DNA from: Eubacteriales bacterium
GTDB lineage: Bacteria; Bacillota; Clostridia; Oscillospirales; JAAYXM01
Assembly (NCBI GenBank): GCA_045539475.1
Contig: JAZQFJ010000045.1
Coordinates: forward strand, 2,024-66,023
Reading direction: 5' to 3'
Length of the DNA stretch: 64,000 nucleotides
Shown here one piece after another: positions 38,871-62,427 of the stretch (position 1 is the stretch's first letter; each line of letters starts with the position of its first letter). Made by a program: the position numbers and the translations under genes. Below the pieces are notes generated by a model. It saw only the letters and a list, made by a program, of their open reading frames with translations, was not told the DNA's origin and ran no database searches.

Positions 38871-40721
38871 TTATATAATGAAAGCTACAGGTATTGTACG
38901 CCGTATAGACGATCTCGGGCGTGTCGTTATTCCGAAGGAAATCCGTCGCACAATGCGTATTCGTGAGGGCGACCCCTTGCTGACAACATTGACAGTATAA
39001 GCCTTTGCCCTCCGGTTACGCACCTTTTGAGCATATTCGGCGTTATATGAGATACCTATACTGTCAAACTGAAAATTTACAAGCGCCTCACGGTTCGGGA
39101 GCTTTCCGGTTTTCAAGAGGCTATCTATATCTGCTTTTAACCGGATATCAACCGTGCCGTTTTCAAACACTTCGATTTTGTCTACGATTAAAGATATATC
39201 CATCTTGGAAAGCTTTTCCTTATTGAGGATATCCTCAAATACATCAAAAACGGTTTTTGAAACACGTGCAATCTCAACGATAGAGCTTCTCTTTTCGATA
39301 TTGTCGCGAAGCTGTGCTTGATAGCCGTAAATTCGATGTGTAATTTCATCCTCAAGCTCTGAGTATGTTTCCTCCAGTATATCCGCATCACCGGGATTTT
39401 TTGCAATATCGCGGATTTTCTGTTTCTTAATTGCTTTTAATTCTTCTTTGGCACCTGTAAGCTGTTTCTCCAAAAGCTTTATTACTGCTTCGCTGTCTTT
39501 TACAGTTTCTGCTTCGCTTGCGATTGTTTTCTCAAGCTCTTCTATCATATCGCTGCAATTCATTTTTACCAGCCTGATATAGTCCTTTAAAACCGAATCA
39601 AGAAAGTCTACTCTTATATGATGTGCAGTGCATGCTTTAAGACCTCGCTTATGATATGTTCCGCAAATATATGAAGGAGCGAGATTCGGACGGCTTCTGC
39701 TGAACATAGGTTCTCCGCAGTCACCGCAAAAAAGATATCCGGTGTACGGAGTTTCGTATTTTTTCACTCCGCGGTAATGGGATTTGGTCCGCTTTTCAAG
39801 CAGTTCCTGCGTATACATAAAAAGCTTGTCATCTATTATTGCCTTATGATGCTTCTCAATTACAATATGCTCGTTCTCATCAACTCTTGTATCTTTACCT
39901 TTAATTGATTTGCGCGTGTACTTGTGTCCTCTGAAGGTTCCTATATAGTAATCGTTGCGTAAGATAGTCTGAACAGAAACAATGCTCCACGCTTTTTTCA
40001 CCGTTCTGTTATAATCCCGCTCAGATTCCTCCGCACGCTCTTTTTCTTTCATCCTCGGCGTGGGGATTTTCTTATCTGTGAGATAGTTTGCTATCTTCAT
40101 ATAACCCCAGCCTTCTTCAGAATAAAGGCGGAAAATTTCTTTTATAACCTCAACCTCATCGGCAACGGGTTCAACAAGATTTTTCTTCTGGTTTTTGATT
40201 ATATATCCATACGGTACGGCGCAAAGCCACTCCCCCGCCTGTTGTTTCATATCAATAACGCCACGGACCTTTTTACTCGTTTCCGTAACCGGCATTTCAT
40301 TGAACAAAAAGCGTATGGCAATGTTCGTCCATTCATCGTTTGTCGGATAGTCAATGCTGTCCATTATGCTGATAATACGGACGTCCCTATCCCTCATTTT
40401 TTCAAGCTCGTGAAGGCCAAGGCTCGTTCTTCTCGAAAAACGAGAAAAATCCTTGACGATCAAAATTTTTGACTTGCCGCTAAGAAGCCTTTCCCGCAGC
40501 ACCATATAATTCTCACGTTCTTCAAAGGTATATCCCGAGCGGTCTCGGTCAACATATTCTCTTACTGTGCACTTAGGAAAACGCTGTTGTATGAATGTGT
40601 TTATTATTTTAAGCTGGTTTTCAATGGATGTATTGGAATCGCTCTCGCGCTCTGTATCAACCGAAATTCGCGCATATACGGATATCTCCTCCGTAAGCTC
40701 ACAATCGGGAGTTTTGACCAT
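38871..40721 (-). CDS. Large serine recombinase (resolvase/invertase N-domain, recombinase domain, zinc ribbon, coiled coil)
   Basis: VYARISVD...IENQ...DRDRSGYTFEER...LIVKDFSRFSRR, zinc ribbon CGDCGEPM...C, and a long helical region. ATG 40721 follows AAGGCGGTG. The last ~35 codons are antisense to the spoVT fragment. Confidence 0.9.
   Translation of the reverse strand: MVKTPDCELTEEISVYARISVDTERESDSNTSIENQLKIINTFIQQRFPKCTVREYVDRDRSGYTFEERENYMVLRERLLSGKSKILIVKDFSRFSRRTSLGLHELEKMRDRDVRIISIMDSIDYPTNDEWTNIAIRFLFNEMPVTETSKKVRGVIDMKQQAGEWLCAVPYGYIIKNQKKNLVEPVADEVEVIKEIFRLYSEEGWGYMKIANYLTDKKIPTPRMKEKERAEESERDYNRTVKKAWSIVSVQTILRNDYYIGTFRGHKYTRKSIKGKDTRVDENEHIVIEKHHKAIIDDKLFMYTQELLEKRTKSHYRGVKKYETPYTGYLFCGDCGEPMFSRSRPNLAPSYICGTYHKRGLKACTAHHIRVDFLDSVLKDYIRLVKMNCSDMIEELEKTIASEAETVKDSEAVIKLLEKQLTGAKEELKAIKKQKIRDIAKNPGDADILEETYSELEDEITHRIYGYQAQLRDNIEKRSSIVEIARVSKTVFDVFEDILNKEKLSKMDISLIVDKIEVFENGTVDIRLKADIDSLLKTGKLPNREALVNFQFDSIGISYNAEYAQKVRNRRAKAYTVNVVSKGSPSRIRIVRRISFGITTRPRSSIRRTIPVAFII
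38878..38979 (+). pseudogene. spoVT: 5' fragment (34 codons) of a spoVT-type AbrB-fold regulator gene, interrupted
   Basis: Too short for the ORF track. RBS aaaagggga then ATG, encoding MKATGIVRRIDDLGRVVIPKEIRRTMRIREGDPL. The family continuation (EIF...) is replaced by LTTLTV-stop (TAA 38998-39000). Confidence 0.75.
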
Positions 40722-40783
40722 ATTATCACACCGCCTTTTAGACTTTCTTATAACATTGTAACACATTTAACCGCCAAGGTCAA
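38980..40783 (-). mobile_element. Left-end module of an integrated element (junction in spoVT, recombinase and its promoter). The right boundary is not identified within the window.
   Basis: spoVT homology is lost abruptly at 38979/38980. The recombinase gene abuts the junction, and this segment is visibly AT-richer than the flanks. Confidence 0.55.
40755..40783 (-). promoter_or_regulatory. Promoter of the serine recombinase gene
   Basis: Minus strand: TTGACC, 17 nt, TACAAT, about 30 nt before the RBS. Confidence 0.55.
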
Positions 40784-41032
40784 GAAAATCTGTTGTAACT
40801 AATCCTTAGGAGTATGTTGCACAGCTTTTGGGTTAAATTTAACTACGAATGAACAATCCCCGTAACCCTTGATATTCCAAGGTTTTATCGGGGATTGTCT
40901 TGTTAATTTGTACTTTTTGTTTTTAGGCTGTTTTACCGCTTCAATTATTGGTTTTATAAATCCACTTTGCCAGCAAGCATTGCGAAAATGCATAAAGCTA
41001 CGCTCTTCACGGAAGTTTACATATGCTTAAAA

Positions 41033-42610
41033 TCACTTCTTAAAGCAGCGATCTGCAATGCGTCTCATATTTCCGCCAAGAATTTTCTTTTTATCCTCAA
41101 CAGATACGTTTGCAAAAGCAACCCATCCAAGCTGCGGACGAGGATCGCGCATCGGAGCATCCGTTCCATACAGCGTTTTGCTTGCAAGACCTTCCTCGCA
41201 AAGATACTCTATGACGCCTTCCGGAACGCTTGTAAACGTAAGTTGGAGATACACATTGTCATACTTCTTGGCAAGCACAGCATAGCTCTCTGCGCAAGCA
41301 AAGCTTCGTCCTGCATGGTCAAGGAAGAATGAAATATTCGGATACTTCTCGGCGAGTTCTTCCATGTCTGAAAGGTATGTGGGATATCCACCGCTGTCCA
41401 TAAGCGCAAAAAGGTGATTTTCATTTGCAATCTTAAGCCATGGTTCATACACTGGGTCGTTATATCTTACCCCTGTTCTTGAATAGAACATCTTCATTGC
41501 CGGCATCTTCTCTTCAATATGGTAGTGGTATGCCTCTTTCTCTATATCCTCCACATAGTTCGGATCAATGAGGACATACGGATAAACTCGCTTATCTCGT
41601 TTTGCCATATCTGAAACGAGAAGATTTCCCGCTTCGCTGTCTGTCCATATACCAAGCCACGGTGCCACGCAGTATTCATCAACACCCATTATATCGGAAA
41701 GCATTGACATGTGCTGAAGGTCTCCGTCAACCATAGAAAATCCTCCGCCACAGTTTCCGCCATTCTCAAGAAAATGTGCGTGTGAGTCAAACACAGGTGC
41801 GCTTATCGGCTTGCCCTCTGATGCTTCAACTGCAATTTCATCATTCTGCACCTCAACCTCGGTAGGTAAAGGAATGTTACAAAGCCTTGCAAGGTTTCCA
41901 CCTGCCATAAGTTGCTTTTCCTCATCGCTTATTTGAGCATAATCGATAAACGCACGTGCAGCACCCGGACACATCAGCGGAAGCCCGCTTCCCATACACA
42001 CACGCTCTGCTCCAAATTCCTTTGCTATGATTTCTACCGCAAAATTTGCCTGCATACTCGAAAGGTCAGTATACAGGTTGGGGTATTTTCTGAGATATGC
42101 AGCAAGGTTATGGAAATCAGACCACGCCGTTCCCTGAAGCAGAACATTAAGTTGCTTATGATTTGAAAGAATTGCAGAAAGCTCATCCCAGCTAATCTGT
42201 AGCTTGTCAATGAGAAGCGGTATTCCATCCTCTTCAAGTACACTGTAATATTCTCCCATCACATCCTCACACGGAGAGAAAATATGCGTTTTCGGGAACA
42301 TTTTTACCGCAACCATATTCTTACTTTTCATATCAGAAACAAATTCATCCGGCTTTAAGAAACTTCCTGTATATCCCGGGGCAATTACATAGCAACCATA
42401 GAAGCGACTGTGCTTTGAAAGCTCCTCCGCAAGGCGCTCGTTTCCGTAGGCGGGCGCGTAGTCGCGCGCCCATCCCGAATACACAAGCGCTCCAGCTATC
42501 CCTGCTCTATCCATTGCGGCAAGTATATCCTCGCTCTTCCATATTTCCCGATGGTCTTTAAGCCCACGTTTCCCTATACATACGTTTGAATCGAAATATA
42601 TCAGTGACAT
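41033..42610 (-). CDS. Amidohydrolase-fold protein with two metal-dependent hydrolase-like halves
   Basis: Two half-repeats start IYFDSNVCIG and VFDSHAHFLE. GAGGTG RBS before ATG 42610; the ORF track starts at GTG 42622. Confidence 0.55.
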   Translation of the reverse strand: MSLIYFDSNVCIGKRGLKDHREIWKSEDILAAMDRAGIAGALVYSGWARDYAPAYGNERLAEELSKHSRFYGCYVIAPGYTGSFLKPDEFVSDMKSKNMVAVKMFPKTHIFSPCEDVMGEYYSVLEEDGIPLLIDKLQISWDELSAILSNHKQLNVLLQGTAWSDFHNLAAYLRKYPNLYTDLSSMQANFAVEIIAKEFGAERVCMGSGLPLMCPGAARAFIDYAQISDEEKQLMAGGNLARLCNIPLPTEVEVQNDEIAVEASEGKPISAPVFDSHAHFLENGGNCGGGFSMVDGDLQHMSMLSDIMGVDEYCVAPWLGIWTDSEAGNLLVSDMAKRDKRVYPYVLIDPNYVEDIEKEAYHYHIEEKMPAMKMFYSRTGVRYNDPVYEPWLKIANENHLFALMDSGGYPTYLSDMEELAEKYPNISFFLDHAGRSFACAESYAVLAKKYDNVYLQLTFTSVPEGVIEYLCEEGLASKTLYGTDAPMRDPRPQLGWVAFANVSVEDKKKILGGNMRRIADRCFKK

Positions 42611-42618
42611 TTTAGTTT

Positions 42619-43335
42619 TCACCTCATCATTGTTTCAACAAGAGATGTTGCAAAAAGGTTATGCAGTTCCCTCGTCGGGTGATTTAATTTGTTTGACAAA
42701 AGCTCCGTCACATTGACACCGAGTTCTGCCATTCTCTTCCACTTTGCATAAACATCGCATACGGGAACATTCTCCTCCTCGCAGAGCGTTCTTGCCGCAT
42801 CCATATAGCGATCGAGCACACCGCGCCTTTGCCGGTCAGAAAGCTTTTCCGCAAGCTCAATAAAATCGGGGTGAATCGTTTCACTCACATTTTCCGCAAG
42901 CATACACGGCGTCATAAAGATTATCTCACTTTCCACTTCACGAAGACAACGGAAAATCTCGCGAAGGCTCTCTACATATTCAGCAAGTCCCTCGTCCTCT
43001 TTTCCGCAATCATTTAAGCCGAAGCAGACGACTGTGAGATCCGGATTTTTTGAAAGGACATCACGTTCTATACGAGAAAGTCCATATGCTGCCCCCGTTC
43101 CCGCAACGCCTGCATTGATGATATTAAGCGGCACTGTCGGAAAAAGAACACCGAGGATTTCCGAAACCTTTTTGTGATAGACGCTTTCGCGGTCAAAAAC
43201 ATTGTCATGTCCGCCGCTTCTTCTCGGAATAAGCTCAAAGCAACCTTCAGTCACGCTGTCACCGAAAAAAGCTATCGTCGGACGGGGATTGTTTGCATCC
43301 TGCGCCTTTTTTGCAATTTTTCCTATTATTTTCAT
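42619..43335 (-). CDS. SGNH/GDSL-family hydrolase (esterase)
   Basis: Block I IAFFGDSVTEG and block III GLNDCG. ATGA overlap with the upstream gene. Confidence 0.8.
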   Translation of the reverse strand: MKIIGKIAKKAQDANNPRPTIAFFGDSVTEGCFELIPRRSGGHDNVFDRESVYHKKVSEILGVLFPTVPLNIINAGVAGTGAAYGLSRIERDVLSKNPDLTVVCFGLNDCGKEDEGLAEYVESLREIFRCLREVESEIIFMTPCMLAENVSETIHPDFIELAEKLSDRQRRGVLDRYMDAARTLCEEENVPVCDVYAKWKRMAELGVNVTELLSNKLNHPTRELHNLFATSLVETMMR

Positions 43336-44189
43336 TTTATTATCTCTCCCAAAAACTTATCGGCAAACCATTCCTGCACCTTAGCTACATAATGCGCACG
43401 GTCGGACGCGAGAACACCATAGCACAAATTGTCGTTTTCATCCCAATAGAGGCAGTCGCGCGGATCAACGAGCTTTGCACCAATGCGTTTTGCCTGACGT
43501 ACAATTTCTTCGTTTATGATATCCTCGCTCTCAAGCGGGAGATTAAAACGTTCAAGTCCACCGCGAACAACTATCTTATAAAGATATGTCGGAACATCTC
43601 CGCCCATAGACTCACGCATAACATCGAAGTGATAATCATAACGCTCTTGAAAATCATCCCGGAGGTATGCTTCATGCCAAACCTCCTGTTCGCAACCGAG
43701 CCAGTGCCATCCGATAACCTCGGGATTCTTGCCTGCATCGGTCAGGTTCTTCATAACAAGGCGGTTTATATGCAGTGCGAGCGGGAGAAGCGAAATATCC
43801 GCTTCTCCGAGTATACCGGGCTTTATTACCGGTTCTTTGTCGCGGTTCCACATTCCGTTGATTATACCCTGACTTCCGATTGAAATCTGAACGATATAGA
43901 GGTCGGGCAACTTCTTTCCGGAATCAATCGCCGCCTGCCACTTCTTTGCGATGAAATATGCAAGACTTGCCGTGTGGTCCTGGCTTTCACCGAGATTCTT
44001 GCCCATACTTGTCCACCCGCTCCACGTAACGTCCGTTATATCAAGCGACTGGTTAGGATTTCTGTCAAGGCCGAATACATTTCTCATCGGTGTAAGCACC
44101 TTGTCCTCTTCGGAAAGAAACTGCTGGTGCGCCGTTGCATTAGACTGACCGTTTATAAAAAGCACGGCAGCTTTTGTGTTTTTGTTCAC
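43332..44189 (-). CDS. SASA/DUF303-like carbohydrate esterase (sialate O-acetylesterase-like)
   Basis: N-terminal LFINGQSNA (GQSN motif). GTG start 7 nt after AAGGAG. Confidence 0.5.
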   Translation of the reverse strand: MNKNTKAAVLFINGQSNATAHQQFLSEEDKVLTPMRNVFGLDRNPNQSLDITDVTWSGWTSMGKNLGESQDHTASLAYFIAKKWQAAIDSGKKLPDLYIVQISIGSQGIINGMWNRDKEPVIKPGILGEADISLLPLALHINRLVMKNLTDAGKNPEVIGWHWLGCEQEVWHEAYLRDDFQERYDYHFDVMRESMGGDVPTYLYKIVVRGGLERFNLPLESEDIINEEIVRQAKRIGAKLVDPRDCLYWDENDNLCYGVLASDRAHYVAKVQEWFADKFLGEIIK

Positions 44190-44200
44190 ACTGATACTCC

Positions 44201-44773
44201 TTATTCGGGCTTGGTTTCAAGCTTTAACGGGAAATCGCCGAGCTTATTTACCTTGAAGCCGTTTTTCTTATACTCTTCATAGTCAAATGCCTCAAGCTCG
44301 TCAATTGCAAGCTTATGGAACTCATAAAAATTCTTCCACCATTCATAGCCTGAGCCAAGTTCTGCATTAAGATATGCATCTGCAATATCACAGCCCATTG
44401 CCGGAGCAACATAAAAAGCACCCATAGCAAGAACGTTTACGCCGTTGCCCGTGATTGCGCGCAGTGCTGCAGGAACGCTCTCAACAACGCCTGCATGAAC
44501 GTGCGGGCATTTGCTTGCAGCGATATGGATACCCATACCTGTGCCGCAGAAGAGCAGTGCACGCTCAAACTCGCCCTCGCTTATCATTGAGCCGACGCGA
44601 AGACCGACTCTATGGAACATAAGGTCTGTATCATTCGGGTCGGAATCTTCTCTTACGCCTACGTCAGTTATCTTCCAGCCCTTTGCCTTAAGATGCGCAA
44701 CAACCGCTTCTTTAAGCGGGAATCCTGCAAAGTCTGCGCCCACAACAAGATATTTGTCTTTAACCAGTTTCAT
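44201..44773 (-). CDS. RpiB/LacA/LacB-family sugar-phosphate isomerase with C-terminal extension
   Basis: LFCGTGMGIHIAASKCPHVHAGV. GAGGAG RBS. Confidence 0.7.
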   Translation of the reverse strand: MKLVKDKYLVVGADFAGFPLKEAVVAHLKAKGWKITDVGVREDSDPNDTDLMFHRVGLRVGSMISEGEFERALLFCGTGMGIHIAASKCPHVHAGVVESVPAALRAITGNGVNVLAMGAFYVAPAMGCDIADAYLNAELGSGYEWWKNFYEFHKLAIDELEAFDYEEYKKNGFKVNKLGDFPLKLETKPE

Positions 44774-44798
44774 AATTCATTACTCCTCTATAAAAATT

Positions 44799-46250
44799 TT
44801 AATGTGCACATTTTCCGAATACCGTAAAGCTGATAACCCCCGGCTCTATCCCTTCCGGCGCACCGAGAACCGTTAGACGGACTTTTCTTGCTGTTACCGT
44901 CTCAAACGTGCGATAATCCACGCAATAGTCAATCTTATTTTCTGATGCGTCGACAAGCATTTTCCATTCGTCCGAATCCGGAGCTGAGTATTCAACTTTA
45001 TACTGAAAAGCACCAGGGTTGATTCCATCGAGTGTTTCCATCCCGACATCGCGCCAGATTATGCGGCAAGACTCGATGTGATAGCCCTTTTCCGCGGCGA
45101 GGTCAATTTCTAAAGTTTTCTCCTTATCCTCGGGAGTCGGTTGCCACCATGTAAGTGCGCAATCATCCGTTGCGTAAATCGGCTCACGTCCCGGCATATG
45201 GCTTGATGCCTCAACCGGCTGGAAAAACGTAAGTGGCAAAAGTCCTGCATCGTTGCCACACTCGGGTTCTTTCATAACTCCCGGTGCAAACTGCGGTGTT
45301 TCTGTGAGTGCAGGGCAGAAAAGCTCTCCATTTTCGTCAATACCGAGAGGATCCATACCGACTCTTCTTTCAAATTTATAGTGGTGACCAAAGAAATATG
45401 TATAGAATATCCAGTATGTATTGTCGGGCCCTTCTGCTATACTTCCGTGCCCTGCACCGCGGAGAAGTCCGGTAGGCTTACGTGTAAGCGGATCGTGCTT
45501 CTCCTGACGGCGAAATCCGGAAAGCGGACCTTCATCAGAATAGAGGATTCCACAAGCATAGGAAGAATACTGTGTGCCGCTTCCCGAATAGAGAAGATAA
45601 TAGCGCGAACCTATTTTTATCATCCACTGGCCTTCCGTCCATCCGATGCGCTCATTCTGATTATATTCACCGTGGCGCTCCCACTCTTTGTCGGGTGAGA
45701 ATGTGTTTATCCACACCGGTTCCGAGATAAGCTTCCACGGCTCATTCGGGTCGCATTCCGCACCAACGGTTCCGGTAACGCATTCAACATCCTCCCCTTC
45801 CTCAGGCTCTCTTATTTCACACCAGTAAAAATATAGCCGGTCATTCTCTGTAAAATAACAGCCGTCGGGAACTTTCATTTCATTCCCGTGCATATCAGTG
45901 AGGTTGCCGCAATGTTTGAAGGGACCTAAAGGACTATCCGCAACATACATTTCAGGCAGGCTGTGACCGCTTAAATACCACTTTCCGCGAAACTGTACCA
46001 CCGCAGGACTGTAACGCAGATTGTCAATCCCGATATCAACCTTTTTCCAATGAACAAAATCCTCAGTTACATGTGCAAGGCTGTAGCTTGCATACATAAT
46101 CCATTTTCCGTCGTGATATATAACGCTCGGGTCTGAAATAGAGCGGTAATCCTCAAAATTTCTTATATCAATCCCCGTGTGCTCTACATCCAGCCATCTT
46201 CCGCTGGCAACCTTCTCAACGCACAAGGGATTACAATATGTTCTTTCCAT
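44799..46250 (-). CDS. Beta-propeller glycoside hydrolase-like protein (GH43-like) with C-terminal discoidin/F5-8-type-C domain
   Basis: Blade-like DPSVIYHDGKWIMYAS, SPAVVQFRGKWYLSG, GAGHGSIAEGPDNTYWIFY. C-terminal ...IIWRDVG...KVRLTVLG. ATG 46250 (MERTYCNP) is preferred over the ORF-track start 46307. Confidence 0.55.
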   Translation of the reverse strand: MERTYCNPLCVEKVASGRWLDVEHTGIDIRNFEDYRSISDPSVIYHDGKWIMYASYSLAHVTEDFVHWKKVDIGIDNLRYSPAVVQFRGKWYLSGHSLPEMYVADSPLGPFKHCGNLTDMHGNEMKVPDGCYFTENDRLYFYWCEIREPEEGEDVECVTGTVGAECDPNEPWKLISEPVWINTFSPDKEWERHGEYNQNERIGWTEGQWMIKIGSRYYLLYSGSGTQYSSYACGILYSDEGPLSGFRRQEKHDPLTRKPTGLLRGAGHGSIAEGPDNTYWIFYTYFFGHHYKFERRVGMDPLGIDENGELFCPALTETPQFAPGVMKEPECGNDAGLLPLTFFQPVEASSHMPGREPIYATDDCALTWWQPTPEDKEKTLEIDLAAEKGYHIESCRIIWRDVGMETLDGINPGAFQYKVEYSAPDSDEWKMLVDASENKIDYCVDYRTFETVTARKVRLTVLGAPEGIEPGVISFTVFGKCAH

Positions 46251-46325
46251 TTTATTTTCCTTCTTTTGTATGTCTTTGCCCGCAAATGAAGCTTCATCTG
46301 CGGGCATATTTTTCTTACAAGGTGT

Positions 46326-47879
46326 TTACTTTACGCGATTATATGCAGATGTATATGCTGCAATGACTTCATCAACACCCATTGACTTTACAGTCTCAAC
46401 AAATGTATCAAAGTTAGAGAGCGGCTCCTGACCGAGAATGAACTTGATAAGCATTTCTTCTGTATATGTATAAAGTCCGGTCCTGTATGTTTCGATCACT
46501 TTCTGCTCTTCATCATTGAAGTCTAGCCACAATGTTACCGGATATTCAGGAAGCGTATGCTCAATGATGAGGTCTTCACTTTCAAGAGTTGTCTCGGACT
46601 GCATTGCCTCTGCAGCAAGCGGATCAAGGCGGCAGAATGTACCATAGGTCTGGAAGCCATACATTGTATCCGGAAGAGTTCCCGCTTCATCAGTAATGAA
46701 CTTCTTCTTTCCGTCAACAACTTCGTATGTCTCTCCTTCCTTACCCCATGAGACAAGCTCCATAGCCTCGTCGGTATACATCCAGTCAATGAACTTCGCC
46801 GCATTGCCTATTCCCTTTGTGTTTCCTGTGTCTGTAATCGAAAAGCCTATCATTTCAAGGTCGCCGCGTTCGATCATGGAAACTCCCTTTTCGGGGTTTG
46901 CAACAGGAGGTGCAAGTGCCTGAAGCTTATAGTCTGTTTTTCCGCCCTTCTTTGCGAGCTGGTTGAAATAATCTATGCGAAGCTGAAGGTGCGGCAAGAT
47001 AAAGCCGCGATCTGTAAGCATAAGCTCTTCCCATGTAGCATTGTTGAGATTATACGCATCTGCTGGCATAAGCTTTTCTTCAATCATCTTCTTATAGAAT
47101 GATACAATCTCAAGAGCCGTATCTTCGATTGCACCCCAACGCCACTCGTCATCGTCAAAATCATAGTAGATACCATATTCCCACCATTTATCAAATGATG
47201 AACCGGCAATGTTGAACATATATGACATAGAGCGTGTGCAGAACGGGTAAGAATCCGGATAAAGCTCCTTAAGCTCCTTACATACTGAATAAAGCTCCTC
47301 ATAAGTTTCCGGAACCTTGAGGTTATGCTTTTCGAAAATATCCTCACGATAGAGCCATGCACGCATACGGGTTTTTCCCTCGCGACCCGAACCCGGAGTG
47401 TAGTAAACCTTTCCGTCAGCGCGCTTTCTCGGCTTGACTGCTACATTGTATTCCTCTTCAGAAAGGGACTCGAGCCATGCATTGTAGTTAGGCATATACT
47501 CTTTTAAATCATCAAAAGCAATAAGCCCTTCTCCTGCATATTGGGAATGTGTTCCCGCAACGCTGAATGCAATAATATCCGGAAGCTCTTCGCGGGCTGC
47601 AAACATAATCGGAAACTTTGTGGCTGCATCTGACGCAGGAACGGCAATAATGTTGAGCGTTGCGCCGGAGCCTTCCTGCATATATTCCCAAATCTTCCAG
47701 TCTTCGCGAACAGGCCAGCTTGCAGATGACTCAACCATAAAGTTAATAACATCATCTTTTGTGAGCGGCTCTGCTGCATCCGTACCGTCAAGCTGCGTTG
47801 CTCCACCACTGACACCGCCGCAAGCGCAAAGTGCAAGCATCATAATTGCGGCAAGGATTAATGCGATAAGTCTTTTCAT
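46326..47879 (-). CDS. Extracellular solute-binding lipoprotein (ABC family-1 type, large ~517 aa); no permease genes adjacent
   Basis: MKRLIALILAAIMMLALCACGG lipobox. AAGGAGG RBS before ATG 47879. Confidence 0.75.
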   Translation of the reverse strand: MKRLIALILAAIMMLALCACGGVSGGATQLDGTDAAEPLTKDDVINFMVESSASWPVREDWKIWEYMQEGSGATLNIIAVPASDAATKFPIMFAAREELPDIIAFSVAGTHSQYAGEGLIAFDDLKEYMPNYNAWLESLSEEEYNVAVKPRKRADGKVYYTPGSGREGKTRMRAWLYREDIFEKHNLKVPETYEELYSVCKELKELYPDSYPFCTRSMSYMFNIAGSSFDKWWEYGIYYDFDDDEWRWGAIEDTALEIVSFYKKMIEEKLMPADAYNLNNATWEELMLTDRGFILPHLQLRIDYFNQLAKKGGKTDYKLQALAPPVANPEKGVSMIERGDLEMIGFSITDTGNTKGIGNAAKFIDWMYTDEAMELVSWGKEGETYEVVDGKKKFITDEAGTLPDTMYGFQTYGTFCRLDPLAAEAMQSETTLESEDLIIEHTLPEYPVTLWLDFNDEEQKVIETYRTGLYTYTEEMLIKFILGQEPLSNFDTFVETVKSMGVDEVIAAYTSAYNRVK

Positions 47880-47944
47880 TTTATTTCCTCCTTGTTTTTT
47901 CATGGTCCGGTGGGAGAAAATCTCCCACCGACCGTTTTTTACTG

Positions 47945-50900
47945 CTACGCGATATAGTCGAGAATTCTCTTGATGAGAACTGCAACCTCTGCACGGGTGG
48001 TGTTAGCAAGCGGGTCAATAAGACCGTTCTTACCGTTGACAAGCTCTGCCTTGACAAGCGCAGAAACCGCTTCCTTTGCATAATCTGCAACTTCATTGAA
48101 ATCAGCCGCCTGAGGCTCATCTTCCGCTGCGGTGATTTTCTCCATCGAATACAGTGCACGATAAACTATAACCATCATATCCTGACGGGTTATTGTGTTT
48201 CTCGGTGCGTATTTATTGTCACCGATGCCGTTTACAATACCTGCATTGCGTGCTATTGCAAGCTCTGATGCGAAGTAGTCATTTTCATTTACGTCTGCAA
48301 AGTTTTCGGTATTGTCCGATGCGAGCTTGAATGCACGGACAAGCAGGAGCGCGAAGTCTGCGCGCGTTATATTCGCGGATGGACTAAACGTACTTGCAGA
48401 CGTGCCCTTTATTATTCCATCCTCTGCAAGATAGTTTATCGCGCTCTCTGCCCATGCGTGATTAGAAAGGTCTGTGAAACGGATAGTATCCGTTTCACCC
48501 GACGCGTCGGGTGCGGTGTTCGCATCATCTGCAGTTTCGCCGTTTTCTGTGCCATCGGGGGCTTCCTGCTTATCGGTAGGTGCGGCATCTCCGCCACCAC
48601 CGCCGCCTCCGCCACCGCCGGACGGTGTGGTGGTATCATCGGTGCTTCCGGAATTGTCGGTTGACTGGTTATCATCTGCCGATGGCTTACTTGTCGTCGA
48701 ACCGTAGACCGTTACCGTAAAGTGAACAGTTGTTTCCGTAATCCCGTCAGTCACGGTTATTGCAAAGTGATTGTCGCCAACCTGCGAGCTATCCGGTTTC
48801 CATGTGACGGTCATATCATTTGCGCTTACGGTTGCTCCTCGCGGAAGCGATGTTCCAACAGCCCAAATTGCTCTTCCCGCAGGGCTGTATGCGCTTATCG
48901 GAATTGATATAGAGCTTCCTGCCGAGGTTGTATAGTTCTTGGGTTGAACAACATTCGGTGCACTGTCATAAATGCTTGAAACCGGAATTCTGAGCGTTTG
49001 CCCCTCATCAATATTATAAACATATCCGCGAGCTGTGTTATTTACGTCAACATAGCTTCTGATTAGGGAAACATCACCTATATTAAGCTTAATATTTCCG
49101 TCTTCGACAGATGCAGACTCGATTCTGTATGCGCCGTTCCGGACTCCGTCGTTCTCGACATATACAAACTTACCTGCGAGAGCCTCATTAGCAGCCTTCG
49201 TATCGTTAAGAGCAATCTCATTATCGGGCTTGTAAACGATATAGTTCTCCTTTGAAAGATCTTCTGTGAAGCTCTGAACCTTTCCTGTGTATGCCGCGAT
49301 TGCTTCTTCGGTTTCAGTATCACCAACGAGTTTTAAAACCTCACCGTCGTTGAGATATGAGTGGATGATTTTTCCTTCCTTATCAAAAGAAATTACACCT
49401 GCAAAGCCACGGAAGTTTATTTTATCCTCTATAACATAATCAACCGAATTATTGGTTGAATACATTATATAATCAACTCTTCCGTTCTTAAGAGTTACCT
49501 TGACTGCACTGTAAGCGTCAAGAACACCCGGCTTTGAATCTTCCTCACGGACCATCGGAACCTTTTCAATTTTTTCAATATACTTATTCGTTACATCATA
49601 CGGTTCAAAAACGGTCGTGAATACCGTGTCAAGATTTGTTCCGCGATTTCTGACAAGCATATATTCAAGGTTTCCTGCATGAGCGTTGCTCTTATTCTGC
49701 GGAGGCAGCGCCTTTGCAAAGGATACTTCAGAAACAGGACTGTCATTCAGCATCGTGACTCTCAGGCGGACATCACGTTTCTTATCCATAACCTTTTTCC
49801 AGTCCTTGACATTGAACTCAACAGTGAAATCCTTTTCAACAGAGTTATAGGTACGTACATCACGAAGCCATGTATATCCTTTCGGGTAAACTTCAGAACC
49901 GGCACCACCCGGGTCCGGACCGTATTTTACATCGGGACCTGCATATGTACCGTAAAGGTTTCCTTTATCATCCGTATACATCGGTGTCGCTTCCATATCT
50001 CCAAGACCGGAAATAGCCGTATGCTCATCGGACTGGCTGTGGAAGCTGTAGAGATGGTCGTCGCCGCCCTTGATATGGAAGAAGTCAACACCATAAGAAA
50101 TTTCATCATCGACATCAACCATAACTACCGATCTTCTGTATTCCTCAGTATTGCTGTACACATCGGCGCTTATATCCATAAGCTTGACGCGTCCGGAATC
50201 ATCGAAGTGTATCGGAGTCTGAGTAGCCTTAATTGTCTCCTGCTCATTCTCATCAACGACAACCGTGTTGTGAGAAATCGTTGTGCTTACCCACTGAACG
50301 CGGTTCGGCTGCTGACCAGTTTGCTCCGGATATCCGATATCGGGAGCGATATTGAGACCATATGCATCTGCAAAGAGGTTCAATGTATCGCGGTGACCGT
50401 GCATATCATTTTTTCCGAAATAGATTGCAAAGTCGCGATGCGTGTTGTTATAGCTTGATGTGCTTGCGGAGTCATGTTCTCCGCCGGCGCGAAGCGCGGC
50501 AAAACCGTAGCCTGCAAGCATATCACTGGGAAGAGCAAGCTTTCCTTCCGTTTCAATTACCTCTTCAATATCCTTTGTAAGCTGCTCGGGATCGTCATCA
50601 AGGATACTGCCGCGAAGCTCGATTCCACGCGTCTCATGCAAGAAGTAAAGCGCCTGAGCAAGAATCGGCTGCTTCGTGTTCTTATATGCCAGAAGAATAT
50701 CATCCTCTACAACTGCAAGACCCGTTCCTCCGATTGCACCGAAGTCGCCTGTGTGCGAGGTGTAGTAACCGCCGAGAAGCAGACGGATCTGAGCCGCAAA
50801 CATCTTTGTAAACTTCGGGTTTTCATAAAGGTCAGCCTGCGGATAAAGCTCAAATCCACGCAAAAGCTCTGCAACGCCCTGGAAGTGCGTAATCAATTCG

Positions 50901-53900
50901 CGGTTATATCCCGGAGAATTTTCCTTTCCGTTTCCGTCGCGGTCAATATCACCGATAAGTGACCCCATAAACATGCCACCGGCAGCAGGAATAGTTCTCG
51001 GAATCTTACCTGTGTTTATACCGGAAGTTCCAGCAACCGGACCCGGAGCGAATATCCAATCAATCATCTCGATTGATTCAGGTGCTCTGTTGAGAGAAAC
51101 CGCTGCAGCTGCAACAGATTTCTGGTGCATACCGAAGTTACCCCAGTTTTTGCCGTATTTTGTTCGTTCGAATATTTTAAGAATAAGGTTTTCTTCGACA
51201 TTCTTTCTTACTGCGCCGGGGCTGTCTTTAAGGTTAACCGGAATAAGCTCTCCACTTTCATCCTTAACCCAGTTGCCAAATTCATCCTTTTCATATTGCG
51301 GCGCTCTCTCGGAGAGATATTCAATTACCGCAGGGTCATTGTAAATCGGCTTAAACGCATCGTATGCCATTGCAAAATCATAGGTCATAAATGTGGACCA
51401 GACAGGGTCAACGATTGTACCATAGTAATCGTCGCCGCGCCAGGTATGCCACTGGAACCAGTCATAGCCGGGGAAGAAGTCGGCAACTCTGTCGAGAAGA
51501 ATTGCGCCCGCTCTTCCGTATTTCGCTTCACCCGTGTACACAAAAGCCGTGGCAAGAGAATTTATTGCCTTTCTGATTATCTCATCTCCTGCATACCACA
51601 AGCCGTTGTGGATGAAGTATCCAATATAGGTATACTGTACCGGACCTTTATATGCTCCGTCTGTATACCACGCATAACCTTCGTTATCATAGTAGCGTGG
51701 GTCATATCCCGGAACCTTTGTTACGTCTCCGCCCTCGCCGACAATTTCTTTTGCCTTTTCAATCGAAATATAGGGCATTTTATATCCGAAGCCGTCGTCA
51801 ACACCCCATCCCGCGATACCGAGCTTCGTGTCAAGCTCAGGATAAAGATCGTTTGTGAGATATCCACCCTTGACATTATATCCGTAGTGGTCCTTCCACT
51901 CCTGGCTTTCGCGAGCCTCGTTCCAGGCATCAAGCTCTGCTGTCCACTCTGCCGTTCCGGGTGTCTTTGTTGTATAGCTCGGGAATTTGCCGATGTGCGA
52001 ACACTCATTTCCCGCCTTTACATCCTCACAGACAAACTTTTCATGATGCTTCTGAAGTGCTCTGTCAATTGAGAATGTTCCATCGTCTGCAAGACCAAGC
52101 TTATAGAAGGAGCCAAAGTCGTTTGACGGGAACAGACGCTTACAATCCGGACACTGAACCTTCCACGGTCTGTTTATAGGATCTGTATCAAATACCGCAT
52201 TGTATTTCGTTCCGATATCCGCTCCGCAGTAACGGCAGAAGTTCTGCAACGGGTCGTACTTATGGCCGATATGGTAAAAACGCGGCAGACCTTCGGACAC
52301 GACAAGCTCATACAGCAAATCAAGCTTTTCAACGTATTTCTCTGCTTCTGACTTAACAGCCTTTACCTCATCGCGAGCCCATGAATATCGCTGTGCGTTT
52401 TTCTTTGCGTTTTCGCGCTCCTCTAATGTGTATATCGTCGGGTCAACGGTTGCATCCCAAGTAACCTGGAGCGCAAGCGGCTTAATTACAATTCCTTCTG
52501 CCGCACCGTTTTTATAATCCGCGCTGACAGTTGCGGATATTACCGCAGTACCAACGCCGATACCGTAGACACTTCCGTCTTCTGAAAGCTCAACATATTC
52601 GGAGCCTTCAACGAGTTCCCATGTAATGAACTCGCCAGGAACTGTGAGTATATTTCCGCTGTTCATACGCGCGCTTACACCAAGCTTTGACCCTCCGTAA
52701 ACGTAAATAGACTCAGGAGCGGTAATCTTGATTCCGTTTTCAGCGATACCTGAATTGTCGGAAACCGAAACAGTAAATTCGGCTTTCTTCGTTATGCCGT
52801 CATATGTTACTGTTGCGGTTATTTTTGCTTTACCTTCGCTGATACCGGTGATTGCACCGTTTTCATCAACCGTTGCAATATCGGGATTTTCAGATTTGTA
52901 TACGACAGCTGTAATATCGCCGTCTGCATATCCGATATCCTCACCCTTGACGGTTTTGAGCTTAAGCGTGGTGTTTACCGTTTCACCAAGACCTAAAACA
53001 TCGCTTCCGCTCTCCGTCACAATTTCTGCACTGCCTAAAGCGTTTTCGTCTGCAAACGTAAACGAATTCATATAAGCGGCATCACCGCCTGCCTTTGCTT
53101 CTCCGCTTTCGCTTACACGATAGACAACAAGATGCTCGCCTTCTGTAATTTCCTTTATGCCAAAGGGCTTTACGCAGCCGTCATTGTCTTCAACCTCAGA
53201 ATAGAAATCCGCCGTTCCGACATAATATTCACTTGTCGGTACTGCATATTTGAGGATGTTGTTTTCAAACTCCTCTGTTGCAGGCATAACGTAAAGGTCG
53301 AGCGCCGCATTTCTCCAACGGCTTCTGAACATATCGCCTTCTGCAAGATATGTGCTGGTTTTAGGGAACTTAACCTTAAATGCAACGTATGAATTATAGA
53401 GATTTGTTCCCTGCCAGACTATCTGTGCAGATGTTTTCGGACCGTTAAGCAGTATATCGGGATATCTCGGATCAATGTTTTCCACACTGTGGAATATCCA
53501 CGGGCGGAAATCCGTATATGATTTAATATCATTTACCCTGCTGTAGTTATCGGCGGGGTATGCACCCTGATTAAAGTTAATTGCAACAACGGATGAGGGT
53601 GGCACGTCTTCGCTGAAAACAACAATTTTTTCGGGTACACTCTCAATGATATTTCCGCGAATGTTGATTTTCGCCTTTACTTCAAAGGTTCCGGCCTTCG
53701 CCGCGCGGACACCATCTTCTGTCAGAGTTGCAACACCGTCTTCAGACTGATTCTGAATCTCAAGGCTTTCGATTGTTCCGCCGGGCAGAACCTTTCTGTT
53801 TACAAGCTCATAACCGGTTGTGAAGAGAAGCTCTTCGCCAAGCATAATCCTGTTGTTTGTGTAAAGATACGTTTTTGCTATTTTGTAATCATTATCAACG

Positions 53901-56395
53901 GTCAACTCGGTTTCACAATGGCTGACCGTTCCGTTGAGGATGACGCAGGTCTTAATTGTTCCTACGCCTTCGGAAAGAGCGATGAACTCTCCCTTCTCGG
54001 CGTCGTACTTAATGATATCCTTATCTTCCTCCGCAATCTCATAGATGAACTGCGCCCCTGCAAAGTCAACCATACCGCCACCGTCAAGCTTTCCCGTTAC
54101 GGACTTGACGGTTACCGCTTCTCCCACACCTATTTCGTTCTCCGAAAGAGTTGTCGTTACCTGAATCTCTCTCGGCGTACCAACAAGGTTAATACTTCTG
54201 AGAATCGCATATTCCTGCACGGTATTTTTTCTGCTGTAGTGCTCTTTAACTATCATAAGATATTCTGCATATCCGGCGCTGTAGTCTAGTTCCTCTGATG
54301 CGACGAACTGTCCTGCAAAAGCGCGCCAGCCAACACCGCCGCTTGTGCCATACAAGTCAGCATCTCCCACAAGGTTCTCCGGTACGCAGTATGAACTGAG
54401 GTTGTTTGTTATGTCCGAGAAGGTCATATCTGAGGTATAGGGAAGCATATAAAGCTCCATACGTCCTGCGCTTGTATACTCACGACCTCTGACATCAACA
54501 TTATATTTTCCGGGTGCCGGAACCTTCACCTTATATGCAACCCAGTCTCCGTTACGACCGGAAAGATCTGTCCAGCTGGCATTTGCTCCGAGATATGTTC
54601 CCGATGAGTCAGGTCTTGTTAGCCTTGCGGCAACCATACCCCACGGACGGTCTGTTCCGTAATCGCGCATAGCATATGCTGAGAACTGCTCTTCCGTTAA
54701 TGGAGTTCCTTTTACAGCTCCTTCGATTGCTAGCCCCGGAGAAAAATCTTCATACACACCGCTGTAGAAGAAGTAGTCCTGATTTACTCCGGAAAGGGGC
54801 GCCGGCGGTAAAACATTGATTGTAACATCAACAGACTTTGTTACGCCATCAAGTGTTCCGCTTACCGTTAGCGTCGCTTCACCCTCGGCAATGGCATAGA
54901 TTTCTCCATCGCTTGGCTCAATAAGGGCGCCATTCTCATTGTCTGTAACTTCTACCGTAAACGAGCCCTTCACATCGGTGGTTTCCTCGTCATTTACAAA
55001 CCATTTTATTTCAGGCGAAAGCTTGTCGCCTACGCACACCTCACCAAAATCCGCTTCGATTGCCGTAAGCTCGGGCGGTGCGATGTACGGTGTGAGAGTG
55101 AGTCCTTTTGTTTTAAAATATGTTGCCCAGCCATGAGTTGATGCCCCGGCTCCCTGAACAAGGCTTATAATGACATAATATTCTCCCGAATCGAGATAAA
55201 CATTGTCGTATTCACCTTGTACATTTACAGAGCTTCCGCTTGCTACCCAACCATCCTGAGAAGCAACGAGCTTCACGCCTGAGTCTGCAAAAATCTCCGG
55301 AAGATTCAGTGTTGCTGATTTCATTGTCCATTTGCTGTCCGCATAGGAAACGGGAACAAAATAAACATTGAGCTTTCCGTACTGTGCATACGTTGCATAT
55401 ACCATAGACGGTGTATATGTGCCCGAATTTTCAACTTTTGCCTTTAAAATGACCGCGTTATTATTTTCTCCAAGGGTAGTAGATACCGCACGGAAAGTCG
55501 TACCGTGGTCTTTTTCAGCATACATCAGCTGGGCATCCATGCCTATCTTGCTGTAATACATCCATTCGCCCGTCGATACCTTTTTATTGAGAGCGGCATA
55601 AGCGGTCATAGTAGTCATATCCACACTGCCGCTTGTATAACCCGCCTTTGCCTCTGCATTGAAGGAATATACAATGGGTGCTGATGCATCCGGTGCTATG
55701 TAAGGAGTGAGAGTAAATCCCTTTGTTCTGAAATAAGCATTTGATGCGTGTGAAGACTCTCCACTTCCTTCAAAAAGGCTTATAAGAACATAGTATTCTC
55801 CCGACTCCAGATGAACTCTATCATATTCACCTACTATATTTGCAGAACTTCCGCTTTTCACCCATCCATCCTGTGAAGCAACGAGCTTTACTCCGGAATC
55901 TGCAAACACTTCCGCAAGATTCAAGTCCGATGCACTCATTGTCCACTTGCTGTCTGCATAGGATACAGGAACAAAATAAATGTTGAGTTTACCATACTGA
56001 GCGTATGTTGTATAAACCATAGACGGAGTATATGTTCCCGAATTTTCAACCTTTGCCTTCAGTATAAATGCATTGTTTCCGAGGTTTGTTTTTGCAGCTC
56101 TGAAGGTCGTACCACCATCTTTATCTGCGTACATCATGTATCCGTCCATTCTGTGGCAAATGCCCGAATACATCCATGCACCCGTTGATATTGTACTGTC
56201 AAGCTGAGTATAATTCTTCATAAGTCGCATATCGACATTGGCAGCACTTGTATTTCCCGCCACTGCTTCTGCAATGAAGGAATACACAATAGGTGCAAGC
56301 TCCTCGCTGTCTTCCGCTCCGGCTGTCAGCACAACGCCCGGCAAAAGACCGATAAGCATTGAGAGCGCAAGAATAACAGATAATATTCTTTTCAT
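47945..56395 (-). CDS. Giant (2816-aa) SLH-anchored surface enzyme. Contains tandem N-terminal modules, Ig-like domains, an alginate-lyase/heparinase II/III-like core with a Cys4 motif, a Gly-rich linker and three SLH domains.
   Basis: Signal peptide MKRILSVILALSMLIGLLPGVVLTAGA. Heparinase II/III-like block MHGHRDTLNLFADAYGLNIAPDIGY...TISHNTVVVDENEQ. CRYCG...CPDCKRLFPSNDFG. A GGGGGGGGGG linker, then three repeats of the type FTDLSNHAWAESAINYLAEDGIIKG. AAGGAGG RBS before ATG 56395. Confidence 0.85.
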   Translation of the reverse strand: MKRILSVILALSMLIGLLPGVVLTAGAEDSEELAPIVYSFIAEAVAGNTSAANVDMRLMKNYTQLDSTISTGAWMYSGICHRMDGYMMYADKDGGTTFRAAKTNLGNNAFILKAKVENSGTYTPSMVYTTYAQYGKLNIYFVPVSYADSKWTMSASDLNLAEVFADSGVKLVASQDGWVKSGSSANIVGEYDRVHLESGEYYVLISLFEGSGESSHASNAYFRTKGFTLTPYIAPDASAPIVYSFNAEAKAGYTSGSVDMTTMTAYAALNKKVSTGEWMYYSKIGMDAQLMYAEKDHGTTFRAVSTTLGENNNAVILKAKVENSGTYTPSMVYATYAQYGKLNVYFVPVSYADSKWTMKSATLNLPEIFADSGVKLVASQDGWVASGSSVNVQGEYDNVYLDSGEYYVIISLVQGAGASTHGWATYFKTKGLTLTPYIAPPELTAIEADFGEVCVGDKLSPEIKWFVNDEETTDVKGSFTVEVTDNENGALIEPSDGEIYAIAEGEATLTVSGTLDGVTKSVDVTINVLPPAPLSGVNQDYFFYSGVYEDFSPGLAIEGAVKGTPLTEEQFSAYAMRDYGTDRPWGMVAARLTRPDSSGTYLGANASWTDLSGRNGDWVAYKVKVPAPGKYNVDVRGREYTSAGRMELYMLPYTSDMTFSDITNNLSSYCVPENLVGDADLYGTSGGVGWRAFAGQFVASEELDYSAGYAEYLMIVKEHYSRKNTVQEYAILRSINLVGTPREIQVTTTLSENEIGVGEAVTVKSVTGKLDGGGMVDFAGAQFIYEIAEEDKDIIKYDAEKGEFIALSEGVGTIKTCVILNGTVSHCETELTVDNDYKIAKTYLYTNNRIMLGEELLFTTGYELVNRKVLPGGTIESLEIQNQSEDGVATLTEDGVRAAKAGTFEVKAKINIRGNIIESVPEKIVVFSEDVPPSSVVAINFNQGAYPADNYSRVNDIKSYTDFRPWIFHSVENIDPRYPDILLNGPKTSAQIVWQGTNLYNSYVAFKVKFPKTSTYLAEGDMFRSRWRNAALDLYVMPATEEFENNILKYAVPTSEYYVGTADFYSEVEDNDGCVKPFGIKEITEGEHLVVYRVSESGEAKAGGDAAYMNSFTFADENALGSAEIVTESGSDVLGLGETVNTTLKLKTVKGEDIGYADGDITAVVYKSENPDIATVDENGAITGISEGKAKITATVTYDGITKKAEFTVSVSDNSGIAENGIKITAPESIYVYGGSKLGVSARMNSGNILTVPGEFITWELVEGSEYVELSEDGSVYGIGVGTAVISATVSADYKNGAAEGIVIKPLALQVTWDATVDPTIYTLEERENAKKNAQRYSWARDEVKAVKSEAEKYVEKLDLLYELVVSEGLPRFYHIGHKYDPLQNFCRYCGADIGTKYNAVFDTDPINRPWKVQCPDCKRLFPSNDFGSFYKLGLADDGTFSIDRALQKHHEKFVCEDVKAGNECSHIGKFPSYTTKTPGTAEWTAELDAWNEARESQEWKDHYGYNVKGGYLTNDLYPELDTKLGIAGWGVDDGFGYKMPYISIEKAKEIVGEGGDVTKVPGYDPRYYDNEGYAWYTDGAYKGPVQYTYIGYFIHNGLWYAGDEIIRKAINSLATAFVYTGEAKYGRAGAILLDRVADFFPGYDWFQWHTWRGDDYYGTIVDPVWSTFMTYDFAMAYDAFKPIYNDPAVIEYLSERAPQYEKDEFGNWVKDESGELIPVNLKDSPGAVRKNVEENLILKIFERTKYGKNWGNFGMHQKSVAAAAVSLNRAPESIEMIDWIFAPGPVAGTSGINTGKIPRTIPAAGGMFMGSLIGDIDRDGNGKENSPGYNRELITHFQGVAELLRGFELYPQADLYENPKFTKMFAAQIRLLLGGYYTSHTGDFGAIGGTGLAVVEDDILLAYKNTKQPILAQALYFLHETRGIELRGSILDDDPEQLTKDIEEVIETEGKLALPSDMLAGYGFAALRAGGEHDSASTSSYNNTHRDFAIYFGKNDMHGHRDTLNLFADAYGLNIAPDIGYPEQTGQQPNRVQWVSTTISHNTVVVDENEQETIKATQTPIHFDDSGRVKLMDISADVYSNTEEYRRSVVMVDVDDEISYGVDFFHIKGGDDHLYSFHSQSDEHTAISGLGDMEATPMYTDDKGNLYGTYAGPDVKYGPDPGGAGSEVYPKGYTWLRDVRTYNSVEKDFTVEFNVKDWKKVMDKKRDVRLRVTMLNDSPVSEVSFAKALPPQNKSNAHAGNLEYMLVRNRGTNLDTVFTTVFEPYDVTNKYIEKIEKVPMVREEDSKPGVLDAYSAVKVTLKNGRVDYIMYSTNNSVDYVIEDKINFRGFAGVISFDKEGKIIHSYLNDGEVLKLVGDTETEEAIAAYTGKVQSFTEDLSKENYIVYKPDNEIALNDTKAANEALAGKFVYVENDGVRNGAYRIESASVEDGNIKLNIGDVSLIRSYVDVNNTARGYVYNIDEGQTLRIPVSSIYDSAPNVVQPKNYTTSAGSSISIPISAYSPAGRAIWAVGTSLPRGATVSANDMTVTWKPDSSQVGDNHFAITVTDGITETTVHFTVTVYGSTTSKPSADDNQSTDNSGSTDDTTTPSGGGGGGGGGGDAAPTDKQEAPDGTENGETADDANTAPDASGETDTIRFTDLSNHAWAESAINYLAEDGIIKGTSASTFSPSANITRADFALLLVRAFKLASDNTENFADVNENDYFASELAIARNAGIVNGIGDNKYAPRNTITRQDMMVIVYRALYSMEKITAAEDEPQAADFNEVADYAKEAVSALVKAELVNGKNGLIDPLANTTRAEVAVLIKRILDYIA
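55085..55681 (-). repeat. Module copy B in the giant protein
   Basis: APIVYSFNAEAK...ILKAKVENSGTYTPSMVYATYAQYGKLNVYFVPVSYADSKWTM...GEYYVIISLVQG...LTLTPY. Confidence 0.85.
55700..56296 (-). repeat. Module copy A (~200 aa) in the giant protein
   Basis: APIVYSFIAEAV...ILKAKVENSGTYTPSMVYTTYAQYGKLNIYFVPVSYADSKWTM...GEYYVLISLFEG...TLTPY. Repeated at 55085-55681 and 58216-58806. Confidence 0.85.
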
Positions 56396-56466
56396 TTTTT
56401 CCTCCTTGTGGAAATGTGTAAGGGGCAAGCAAGCCTCCCTCCGTGTGTGAAGGGAGGCTTGTTTTT

Positions 56467-61157: not shown

Positions 61158-61178
61158 AATTTGCCTCCTAAATATAAA

Positions 61179-62201: not shown

Positions 62202-62244
62202 CTTAATTTCCTCCTTATGAATTATCGAATACATTATACACTAT

Positions 62245-62417: not shown

Positions 62418-62427
62418 TTTTTTGCGT

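Follow-up and report, generated by a model that had tools for sequence, protein, structure and literature searches.

We analyzed a 64,000-nucleotide (nt) stretch of a genome assigned to the Eubacteriales (contig JAZQFJ010000045.1 of assembly GCA_045539475.1), referred to here in its entirety as the window, in which the gene of a large serine recombinase on the minus strand runs into the beginning of the sporulation gene spoVT on the plus strand. The features that meet at this junction, including the left attachment site (attL) of a putative integrative element, whose right counterpart is called attR, are as follows.

38871..40766, minus strand: large serine recombinase gene; its longest open reading frame (ORF) has 631 amino acids and matches the Pfam families Resolvase, Recombinase, and Zn_ribbon_recom
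38871..38970, minus strand: final stretch of the recombinase ORF, contributed by host DNA; about 32 codons lie antisense to spoVT codons 1 to 31 and the spoVT leader, plus the stop
38878..39000, plus strand: spoVT 5' fragment; codons 1 to 34 are authentic up to 38979 and are followed by six element-encoded codons (LTTLTV) and a stop
38968..38975, no strand assigned: GGCGACCC, the sequence common to attL, attR, and the empty site; only these 8 nt are shared in a comparison of the three sites
38976..38994, no strand assigned: half of attL on the side of the element, with the arm CTGACAACATTGACA at 38980-38994; its minus strand encodes recombinase residues TVNVVSKG

The plus strand from 38878 to 38979 encodes MKATGIVRRIDDLGRVVIPKEIRRTMRIREGDPL, which is identical at 33 of 34 positions to residues 1 to 34 of Bacillus subtilis SpoVT. 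The remainder of spoVT is absent from the window and is located, from EGDPLEIYTDRDGE onward, on contig C67 of the same assembly. Joining the fragment to the C67 flank in silico yields an intact SpoVT of 180 amino acids that is 97% identical to the SpoVT of the closest relative, genome G002, in which an uninterrupted spoVT lies beside the same DUF436 gene and similarity to the window stops at 38975. The coding sequence of spoVT is split by the element, and precise excision would, according to this in silico join, restore the gene. Comparison of attL with attR and the empty site of G002 confines the exchange to GGCGACCC.

The partner of the attL arm, TGTCAATGTTATCAG, is found at attR on contig C67. 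When both element ends are joined, the rebuilt attachment site of the free element (attP) consists of 15-nt inverted arms, TGTCAATGTTATCAG and CTGACAACATTGACA, with one mismatch, an 18-nt spacer, and a central GA, which fits the pattern of serine integrase sites: about 50 bp in length, with inverted arms that match imperfectly on either side of a 2-bp crossover, and with attP and the bacterial site attB identical over a short stretch only. Based on the symmetry of these arms, which is seen likewise in the attP sites of free phages, we infer that the central crossover dinucleotide is the GA at 38971-38972. A palindromic CG crossover, with which one attP would serve both orientations, was considered and rejected, as only GA/TC keeps the arm lengths equal in both polarity classes described below and as GA/TC is the symmetry center of the free attP sites. 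Neither a full second attachment site nor an inverted copy of attP close to the recombinase gene turned up when the genome was searched, the sole other resemblance to an arm being a weak half-site (three mismatches) at the recombinase promoter.

A preliminary description of this DNA had stated that the recombinase frame stays open across the spoVT junction, and this is indeed the case: the minus-strand ORF runs antisense through the spoVT fragment, has the C-terminal end ...YTVNVVSKGSPSRIRIVRRISFGITTRPRSSIRRTIPVAFII, and stops with TAA at 38871-38873, 5 nt upstream of the spoVT ATG (38878). The host-derived tail is antisense spoVT, as had been described, but comprises about 32 codons (38874-38970) instead of about 35. 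The further expectation that an attP rebuilt from both element ends would encode a different recombinase tail was borne out as well. The rebuilt site encodes PSLITLTQTEMFSLSLFSFAKRVRDIKK, and the ORF in the rebuilt free form would end in …GSPSLITLTQTEMFSLSLFSFAKRVRDIKK. With attP located within the recombinase ORF, the integrated tail consists of 31 amino acids of antisense spoVT, versus SLITLTQTEMFSLSLFSFAKRVRDIKK for the rebuilt free tail. The most complete explanation that we can offer, and one that we consider highly probable, is that the segment from 38871 to 38998 is the attL of an integrative element, either a phage or a mobilizable island, whose recombinase has a C terminus that depends on the state of the DNA.

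The window enzyme itself shows the domain order of serine integrases, with resolvase catalytic (PF00239, residues 30-180), recombinase (PF07508, 203-326), and zinc-ribbon (PF13408, 340-398) domains, all scoring above the curated cutoffs. The motif YxRxS is invariant in all 21 aligned recombinases (alignment A1), and we take its serine, S35, to be the candidate catalytic residue. AlphaFold2 predicts the coiled coil of the zinc-ribbon region as two long antiparallel helices (405-456 and 458-515), which match the antiparallel helices predicted for a free-form homolog (394-445 and 447-504). Since all homologs begin at Met16 of the ORF and the gene caller likewise reported a product of 616 amino acids (P0001), the true start is likely the ATG at 40721.

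To place this gene among its relatives, we relied on a search of 5.8 billion proteins, which returned thousands of them; the best 120 proteins and 80 loci from species-representative genomes were examined. The conserved sequence in these approximately 200 relatives extends to the crossover (…K[AV]YTVNV[IV]S.G[DS]P), and no stop precedes the crossover in any intact full-length relative among them, which places attP inside the recombinase gene. The possibility raised in the preliminary description, that conserved recombinase sequence and a usable stop end short of the junction and that the read-through is merely fortuitous, is thus contradicted by the homolog alignment. An open antisense frame of such length would by itself be unremarkable. 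The crossing of the crossover by the ORF in the relatives examined, however, is not a matter of chance and constitutes a design of the family instead of a local accident.

The relatives end in one of three ways. The most frequent is a sense fusion (form A; about 95 of the 120 proteins and about 66 of the 80 loci), in which the ORF is fused in frame to SpoVT residues 35 to 180, approximately, from LEI(Y/F)T to the SpoVT end, resulting in a protein of about 730 amino acids with the Pfam domain SpoVT_C. Carriers include cultured Ruminococcus flavefaciens 007c and ATCC 19208, Eubacterium sp. MSJ-21, Flavonifractor, and Dysosmobacter. At four form A loci, the spoVT 5' fragment lies 9 to 11.6 kb upstream on the same strand, which identifies these loci as insertions, and SpoVT residues 1 to 33 are joined in frame to the native tail of the recombinase, so that the tail swap in this form is reciprocal. 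The antisense form seen in the window (form B; 5 of 120 proteins and 10 of 80 loci) has the core G-S-P followed by antisense spoVT, with tails of 1, 31, 34, 37, 41, 42, 51, 60, 62, and 73 amino acids. The single-residue tail occurs in loci L033 and L045 and in protein P0067: spoVT of this host lineage reads R-I-H-E-G-D-P, which places an antisense TGA one codon past the crossover. The spoVT 3' half was not found within 10 kb of the antisense-type recombinases in other genomes; it is present there on other contigs.

The third, free form (form C; about 17 of the 120 proteins) ends in a tail of 25 to 32 amino acids. These genes are located midgenome in phages of 43 to 106 kb, with phage genes on either side, and the large phages among them (up to 106 kb) encode their own NrdD, YopX, and DNA polymerase III alpha. 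IMG/VR and the GenBank phage collection yielded only six matches each, none of them informative on tails; those from GenBank, at an E value of ≤1e-30, are six unannotated metagenomic phage records. We found no description of this spoVT-targeting recombinase family, including its reversed-orientation member, in the literature searched.

Comparison of 18 free or rebuilt tails revealed the motif [SL][LQ][TI][TM]LT..[ED][KR]...F[IV]..[ILM]..[LF][SA].R[ILM]. Both the length and the motif of the native tail are maintained among recombinases that are only 50% to 60% identical. The attP arm determines roughly the first eight residues of the tail, and the remainder extends beyond a typical attP of about 50 bp. 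Beyond the arm, the tails of two related phages differ at six codons synonymously and at nine nonsynonymously, with the synonymous differences falling at the conserved F, S, S, and N; these codon changes lend weak but real support to selection on the tail as a protein. The AlphaFold2 model of a free-form homolog has a folded core up to about residue 542, a low-confidence linker (543-595) that contains the attP-encoded peptide, and a helix at 596-615 with a predicted local distance difference test (pLDDT) score of 65 to 72. For the integrated form in the window, pLDDT remains below 50 over residues 554 to 631, and the antisense tail has values of 28 to 36 and is devoid of secondary structure. 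An intact native-tail ORF is still present at the far end of the window element and of two other form B elements.

Because the antisense peptide has no conserved length, is predicted to be disordered, and has a sequence that is merely the complement of a highly conserved gene, it is best understood as a by-product, its stop being reached by chance. What both insertion orientations share as a consequence is the loss of the native tail. As this tail is conserved and predicted to be helical, integration removes something that looks functional, and we infer that the native tail matters to the protein.

The orientation of serine integrase insertion is, in work on Bxb1, reportedly governed by the nonpalindromic central dinucleotide. 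More generally, the central dinucleotide of serine integrase sites sets the orientation of insertion (PMC3783163). The spoVT family agrees with this rule. In the reading direction of the recombinase gene, form A and some free phages have GA at the attP center (encoding G-D-P), form B and other free phages have TC (encoding G-S-P), and GA goes with sense and TC with antisense insertion. What sets the spoVT family apart is that the reversal is natural and repeated and apparently results from inversion of the whole near-palindromic attP instead of engineered mutation.

How often polarity has changed was assessed on a FastTree phylogeny of 182 recombinase cores from which the tails had been removed. 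The tree contains at least 9 to 10 polarity changes; the window enzyme, which is of the TC type, is nested inside a well-supported GA-type clade, its nearest relative being 81% identical. Reverse-complementing the GA-type attP gives the TC-type attP over its full length, and when the sites of L112 and L111 are aligned by hand, 7 of 46 positions mismatch in the inverted comparison versus about 12 to 13 in the direct one. For this reason, the residues encoded with either attP type are TVNV(I/V)S ahead of the core and L(T/I)TLT past it. Inversion occurs readily in hairpin loops that have inverted repeats on both sides, and the segment between the palindromic arms would likewise invert easily, giving rise to polarity flips. 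A different origin of the antisense form, from a sense-form prophage through recombinase-mediated inversion, was rejected, as the junction sequence that it predicts fails to match the window. What is new here is that the family has undergone at least nine polarity flips, apparently through inversion of a near-palindromic attP. The TC type is in the minority (22 of 175 rows, an 87:13 excess of the sense type) and is confined to shallow clades; given this rarity and distribution, the sense fusion may be favored.

Considering these data, we propose a model for integration in this family. The recombinase targets the spoVT codons for E-G-D-P-L, and its attP, a near-palindrome with 15-nt arms, an 18-nt spacer, and GA at the center, forms part of the 3' end of its own gene; with attP at this position, the C terminus of the enzyme depends on the state of the DNA. 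When the element is free, the ORF ends in the conserved tail of about 27 amino acids that is predicted to be helical. Integration in the common polarity results in a reciprocal swap, the recombinase gaining SpoVT residues 35 to 180 and SpoVT residues 1 to 33 gaining the recombinase tail. The window element has its attP reversed (TC when read along the gene) and has inserted in the opposite orientation, with the recombinase ORF entering the antisense strand of spoVT codons 1 to 31 and continuing until a chance stop.

The preliminary description had called a state-dependent C terminus of a serine recombinase itself unusual, a view that does not hold given a published precedent. The SPβ-like phage vB_BsuS-Goe14 (Goe14) encodes a sprA-like integrase with attP in its C-terminal coding region, which loses 131 amino acids upon integration into spoVK, and its authors speculate that integration is carried out by the long form of the integrase and excision by the short one (Kohm et al., bioRxiv 10.1101/2021.11.22.469490). 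Both systems feature a large serine integrase, an attP within the part of its own gene that encodes the C terminus, and a sporulation gene as the target, and the free forms of the spoVT family are also large phages. They differ in that about 27 amino acids are exchanged in spoVT instead of 131 being lost in spoVK, no close sequence relationship was detected, and neither two insertion polarities nor an in-frame SpoVT fusion has been reported for Goe14. Integration-dependent change of a C terminus is also known from mycobacteriophages such as BPs, where attP lies inside a phage gene and integration alters the C terminus and the behavior of the protein (PMC4557955, PMC3694055). The likeness ends there, as the BPs gene encodes a repressor and integration relies on a tyrosine integrase, whereas in the window the altered gene is that of the serine recombinase itself.

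Splitting of a sporulation coding sequence by an element with a large serine recombinase is likewise familiar from skin with SpoIVCA in sigK, SPβ with SprA/SprB in spsM, and gin in gerE (PMC4191935, PMC5595907, PMC5025042). Their targets are mother-cell genes, in which excision leaves the germ line untouched, whereas spoVT depends on σG/σF and is a forespore gene (PMC3738446). Furthermore, the recombinase genes of those elements have not been reported to span attP. We did not find spoVT mentioned in the literature on intervening elements that we searched.

Upstream of the recombinase coding sequence, two overlapping features concern its expression.

40755..40783, minus strand: near-consensus vegetative-type promoter of the recombinase gene (TTGACC, 17 nt, TG-TACAAT), with 10 of 12 matches and a TG extension
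40747..40761, minus strand: arm-like half-site over the -10 hexamer, TTACAATGTTATAAG in the window and TTACAATGTTGACA in relatives

The promoter layout is kept upstream of eight relatives (L002, L003, L004, L109, L111, L112, L113, and L114) as TTGAyy, 17 nt, and TG-TACAAT, followed by GTTGA(C/T)A. Of 14 positions in the relatives' half-site TTACAATGTTGACA, 11 agree with the attP arm TGTCAATGTTGTCA, and the recombinase may thus bind over its own -10 hexamer. The suggestion in the preliminary description that transcription from this gene interferes with the spoVT promoter is plausible in terms of layout, given the strong promoter and the lack of a convincing terminator ahead of the spoVT leader, but would be of little consequence as long as spoVT is split. 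A nested perfect hairpin, ACAATCCCCG…CGGGGATTGT, is present at 40853-40898, in the interval that separates the end of the amidohydrolase gene from the recombinase promoter, and is unlike the attachment site arms.

Beyond the promoter, the window has the following content.

40943..64000, minus strand: host-type DNA adjoining the recombinase gene, encoding an amidohydrolase, a GDSL esterase, RpiB, GH43, a binding protein, a 2,827-amino-acid S-layer homology (SLH)-anchored enzyme, and others, as identified by Pfam

Similarity to related elements is limited to the recombinase gene and ends at its start, with host-type DNA from 40943 at the latest. The amidohydrolase is 77% to 93% identical to proteins in 6 of 15 genomes of the same genus, in a different neighborhood each time, and is followed by about 23 kb of polysaccharide utilization genes. 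Gene orientation and guanine-cytosine (GC) skew both change sign at about 38.8 kb, at the spoVT junction, and the recombinase was found in none of 40 related genomes. The two spoVT halves, with attL and attR, lie on different contigs. Because host-type polysaccharide genes directly follow the recombinase gene, the window element is either very large, with these genes as cargo, or rearranged. The element end on contig C67 carries an AlbA_2-type regulator gene, and this contig terminates at its right end in a 141-nt graph branch shared with the left end of contig C21, on which another serine recombinase, of 493 amino acids, is encoded. Among other form B neighborhoods are an integrative mobilizable element with relaxase and ParB (L056) and sugar genes with an IS256-type transposase (L051). 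The assembly, a metagenome bin, comprises 105 contigs and has many branching contig ends; its contamination is estimated at 4%. A repeat of about 65 nt, CCATATACTTTTTTCGATGTTATCTGCAAAAAAATATCACTTTTACACTTTATGCGGTCTGGGCTG, occurs on at least 10 of its contigs (e.g., C15:72, C35:72, C53:157127, C63, and C93), often near contig ends, and is probably the end of an insertion sequence. The genome also contains a second SpoVT-like gene (contig C59:15512-16066), which combines an AbrB-type N terminus with a C-terminal part resembling SpoVT and shows 32% identity to the split spoVT; this paralog might cover for the latter.

Several of these observations weigh against the proposed reading. The window element is not a normal contiguous island, only its recombinase gene resembles related elements, and with the spoVT halves on different contigs, this copy may be stranded. 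Likewise, the conservation of YTVNVIS and LTTLT is imposed by the attP arms at the DNA level and is uninformative on the protein, and protein-level selection on the remaining tail rests on the motif and one pairwise comparison. It is conceivable, though on balance doubtful, that rearrangement or deletion has cut off the recombinase gene, together with attL, from the remainder of the element, in which case the spoVT split would be permanent and the read-through ORF a relic. The restriction of similarity to the recombinase gene, with host-type DNA by 40943, the 23 to 25 kb of polysaccharide genes that follow, the sign change in gene orientation and GC skew at about 38.8 kb, the sugar genes or IS256-type transposase beside the recombinase at other antisense-type loci, and the SpoVT-like paralog on contig C59 would all suit such a remnant. 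Yet the recombinase ORF, its consensus promoter, both attachment half-sites, and the distal native-tail ORF are all intact, and cargo-rich elements of more than 100 kb exist in the family. The join between the recombinase gene and the polysaccharide locus could be an artefact of metagenome assembly, for which the number of contigs, the estimated contamination, and the branching contig ends of the bin might speak. We consider this very unlikely, as the join is internal to a contig assembled with k=141 and no repeats were detected between 40700 and 41040. Moreover, a chimera would leave attL and the read-through ORF unaffected, and related genomes reproduce both independently.

If the segment from 38871 to 38998 is instead read as the attL of an element with a state-dependent recombinase, as we prefer, that dependence might serve as a switch. 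Loss of the C-terminal helix, in either polarity, would then change the behavior of the recombinase, the DNA state being remembered in the enzyme; for example, the long form might integrate, and the tail-less form might excise, be inert, or differ in stability. We hold this hypothesis only tentatively and rate it as unlikely. It would account for the conservation of the native tail among such divergent recombinases, its predicted helicity beyond a low-confidence linker of about 50 residues, its preservation at the distal end of integrated elements, and the crossing of attP by the ORF in the relatives examined, and a parallel proposal has been published for the Goe14 integrase, which has no SprB-like factor. 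However, the replacement tails are very diverse (1 amino acid, 31 to 73 amino acids of antisense sequence, or a 147-amino-acid GAF-type domain), so that only a loss-of-tail mechanism fits all of them, and the folded core ends about 75 residues before the C terminus in the AlphaFold2 prediction.

Taking this one step further, the C-terminal helix, from which the recombinase core is separated by attP, could be a built-in state sensor that is removed by each integration, whatever its polarity, and restored by each excision. Directionality, stability, or self-repression would then differ between the two states without sole reliance on a directionality factor, and frequent inversion of the palindromic attP would toggle formation of the recombinase-SpoVT chimera among lineages, which the 87:13 excess hints may be favored. 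We offer this extension as a speculation that is unlikely to be correct.

In conclusion, the antisense tail in the window is the ordinary fallout of an unusual, widespread design, and it is this design, together with the polarity flips, that is of interest. A near-palindromic attP would let insertion polarity flip repeatedly in evolution, and the repeated occurrence of reversed insertions means that fusion to SpoVT in frame is not a requirement. To the best of our knowledge, all described sporulation gene elements split mother-cell genes. The present family splits spoVT, a forespore and thus germ line regulator, which makes sporulation of lysogens of these gut Clostridia of particular interest. 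Serine integrases are valued for their simple control of direction. If our hypothesis is true, an integrase that rewrites its own C terminus at each integration and excision would constitute a natural state memory within the enzyme.

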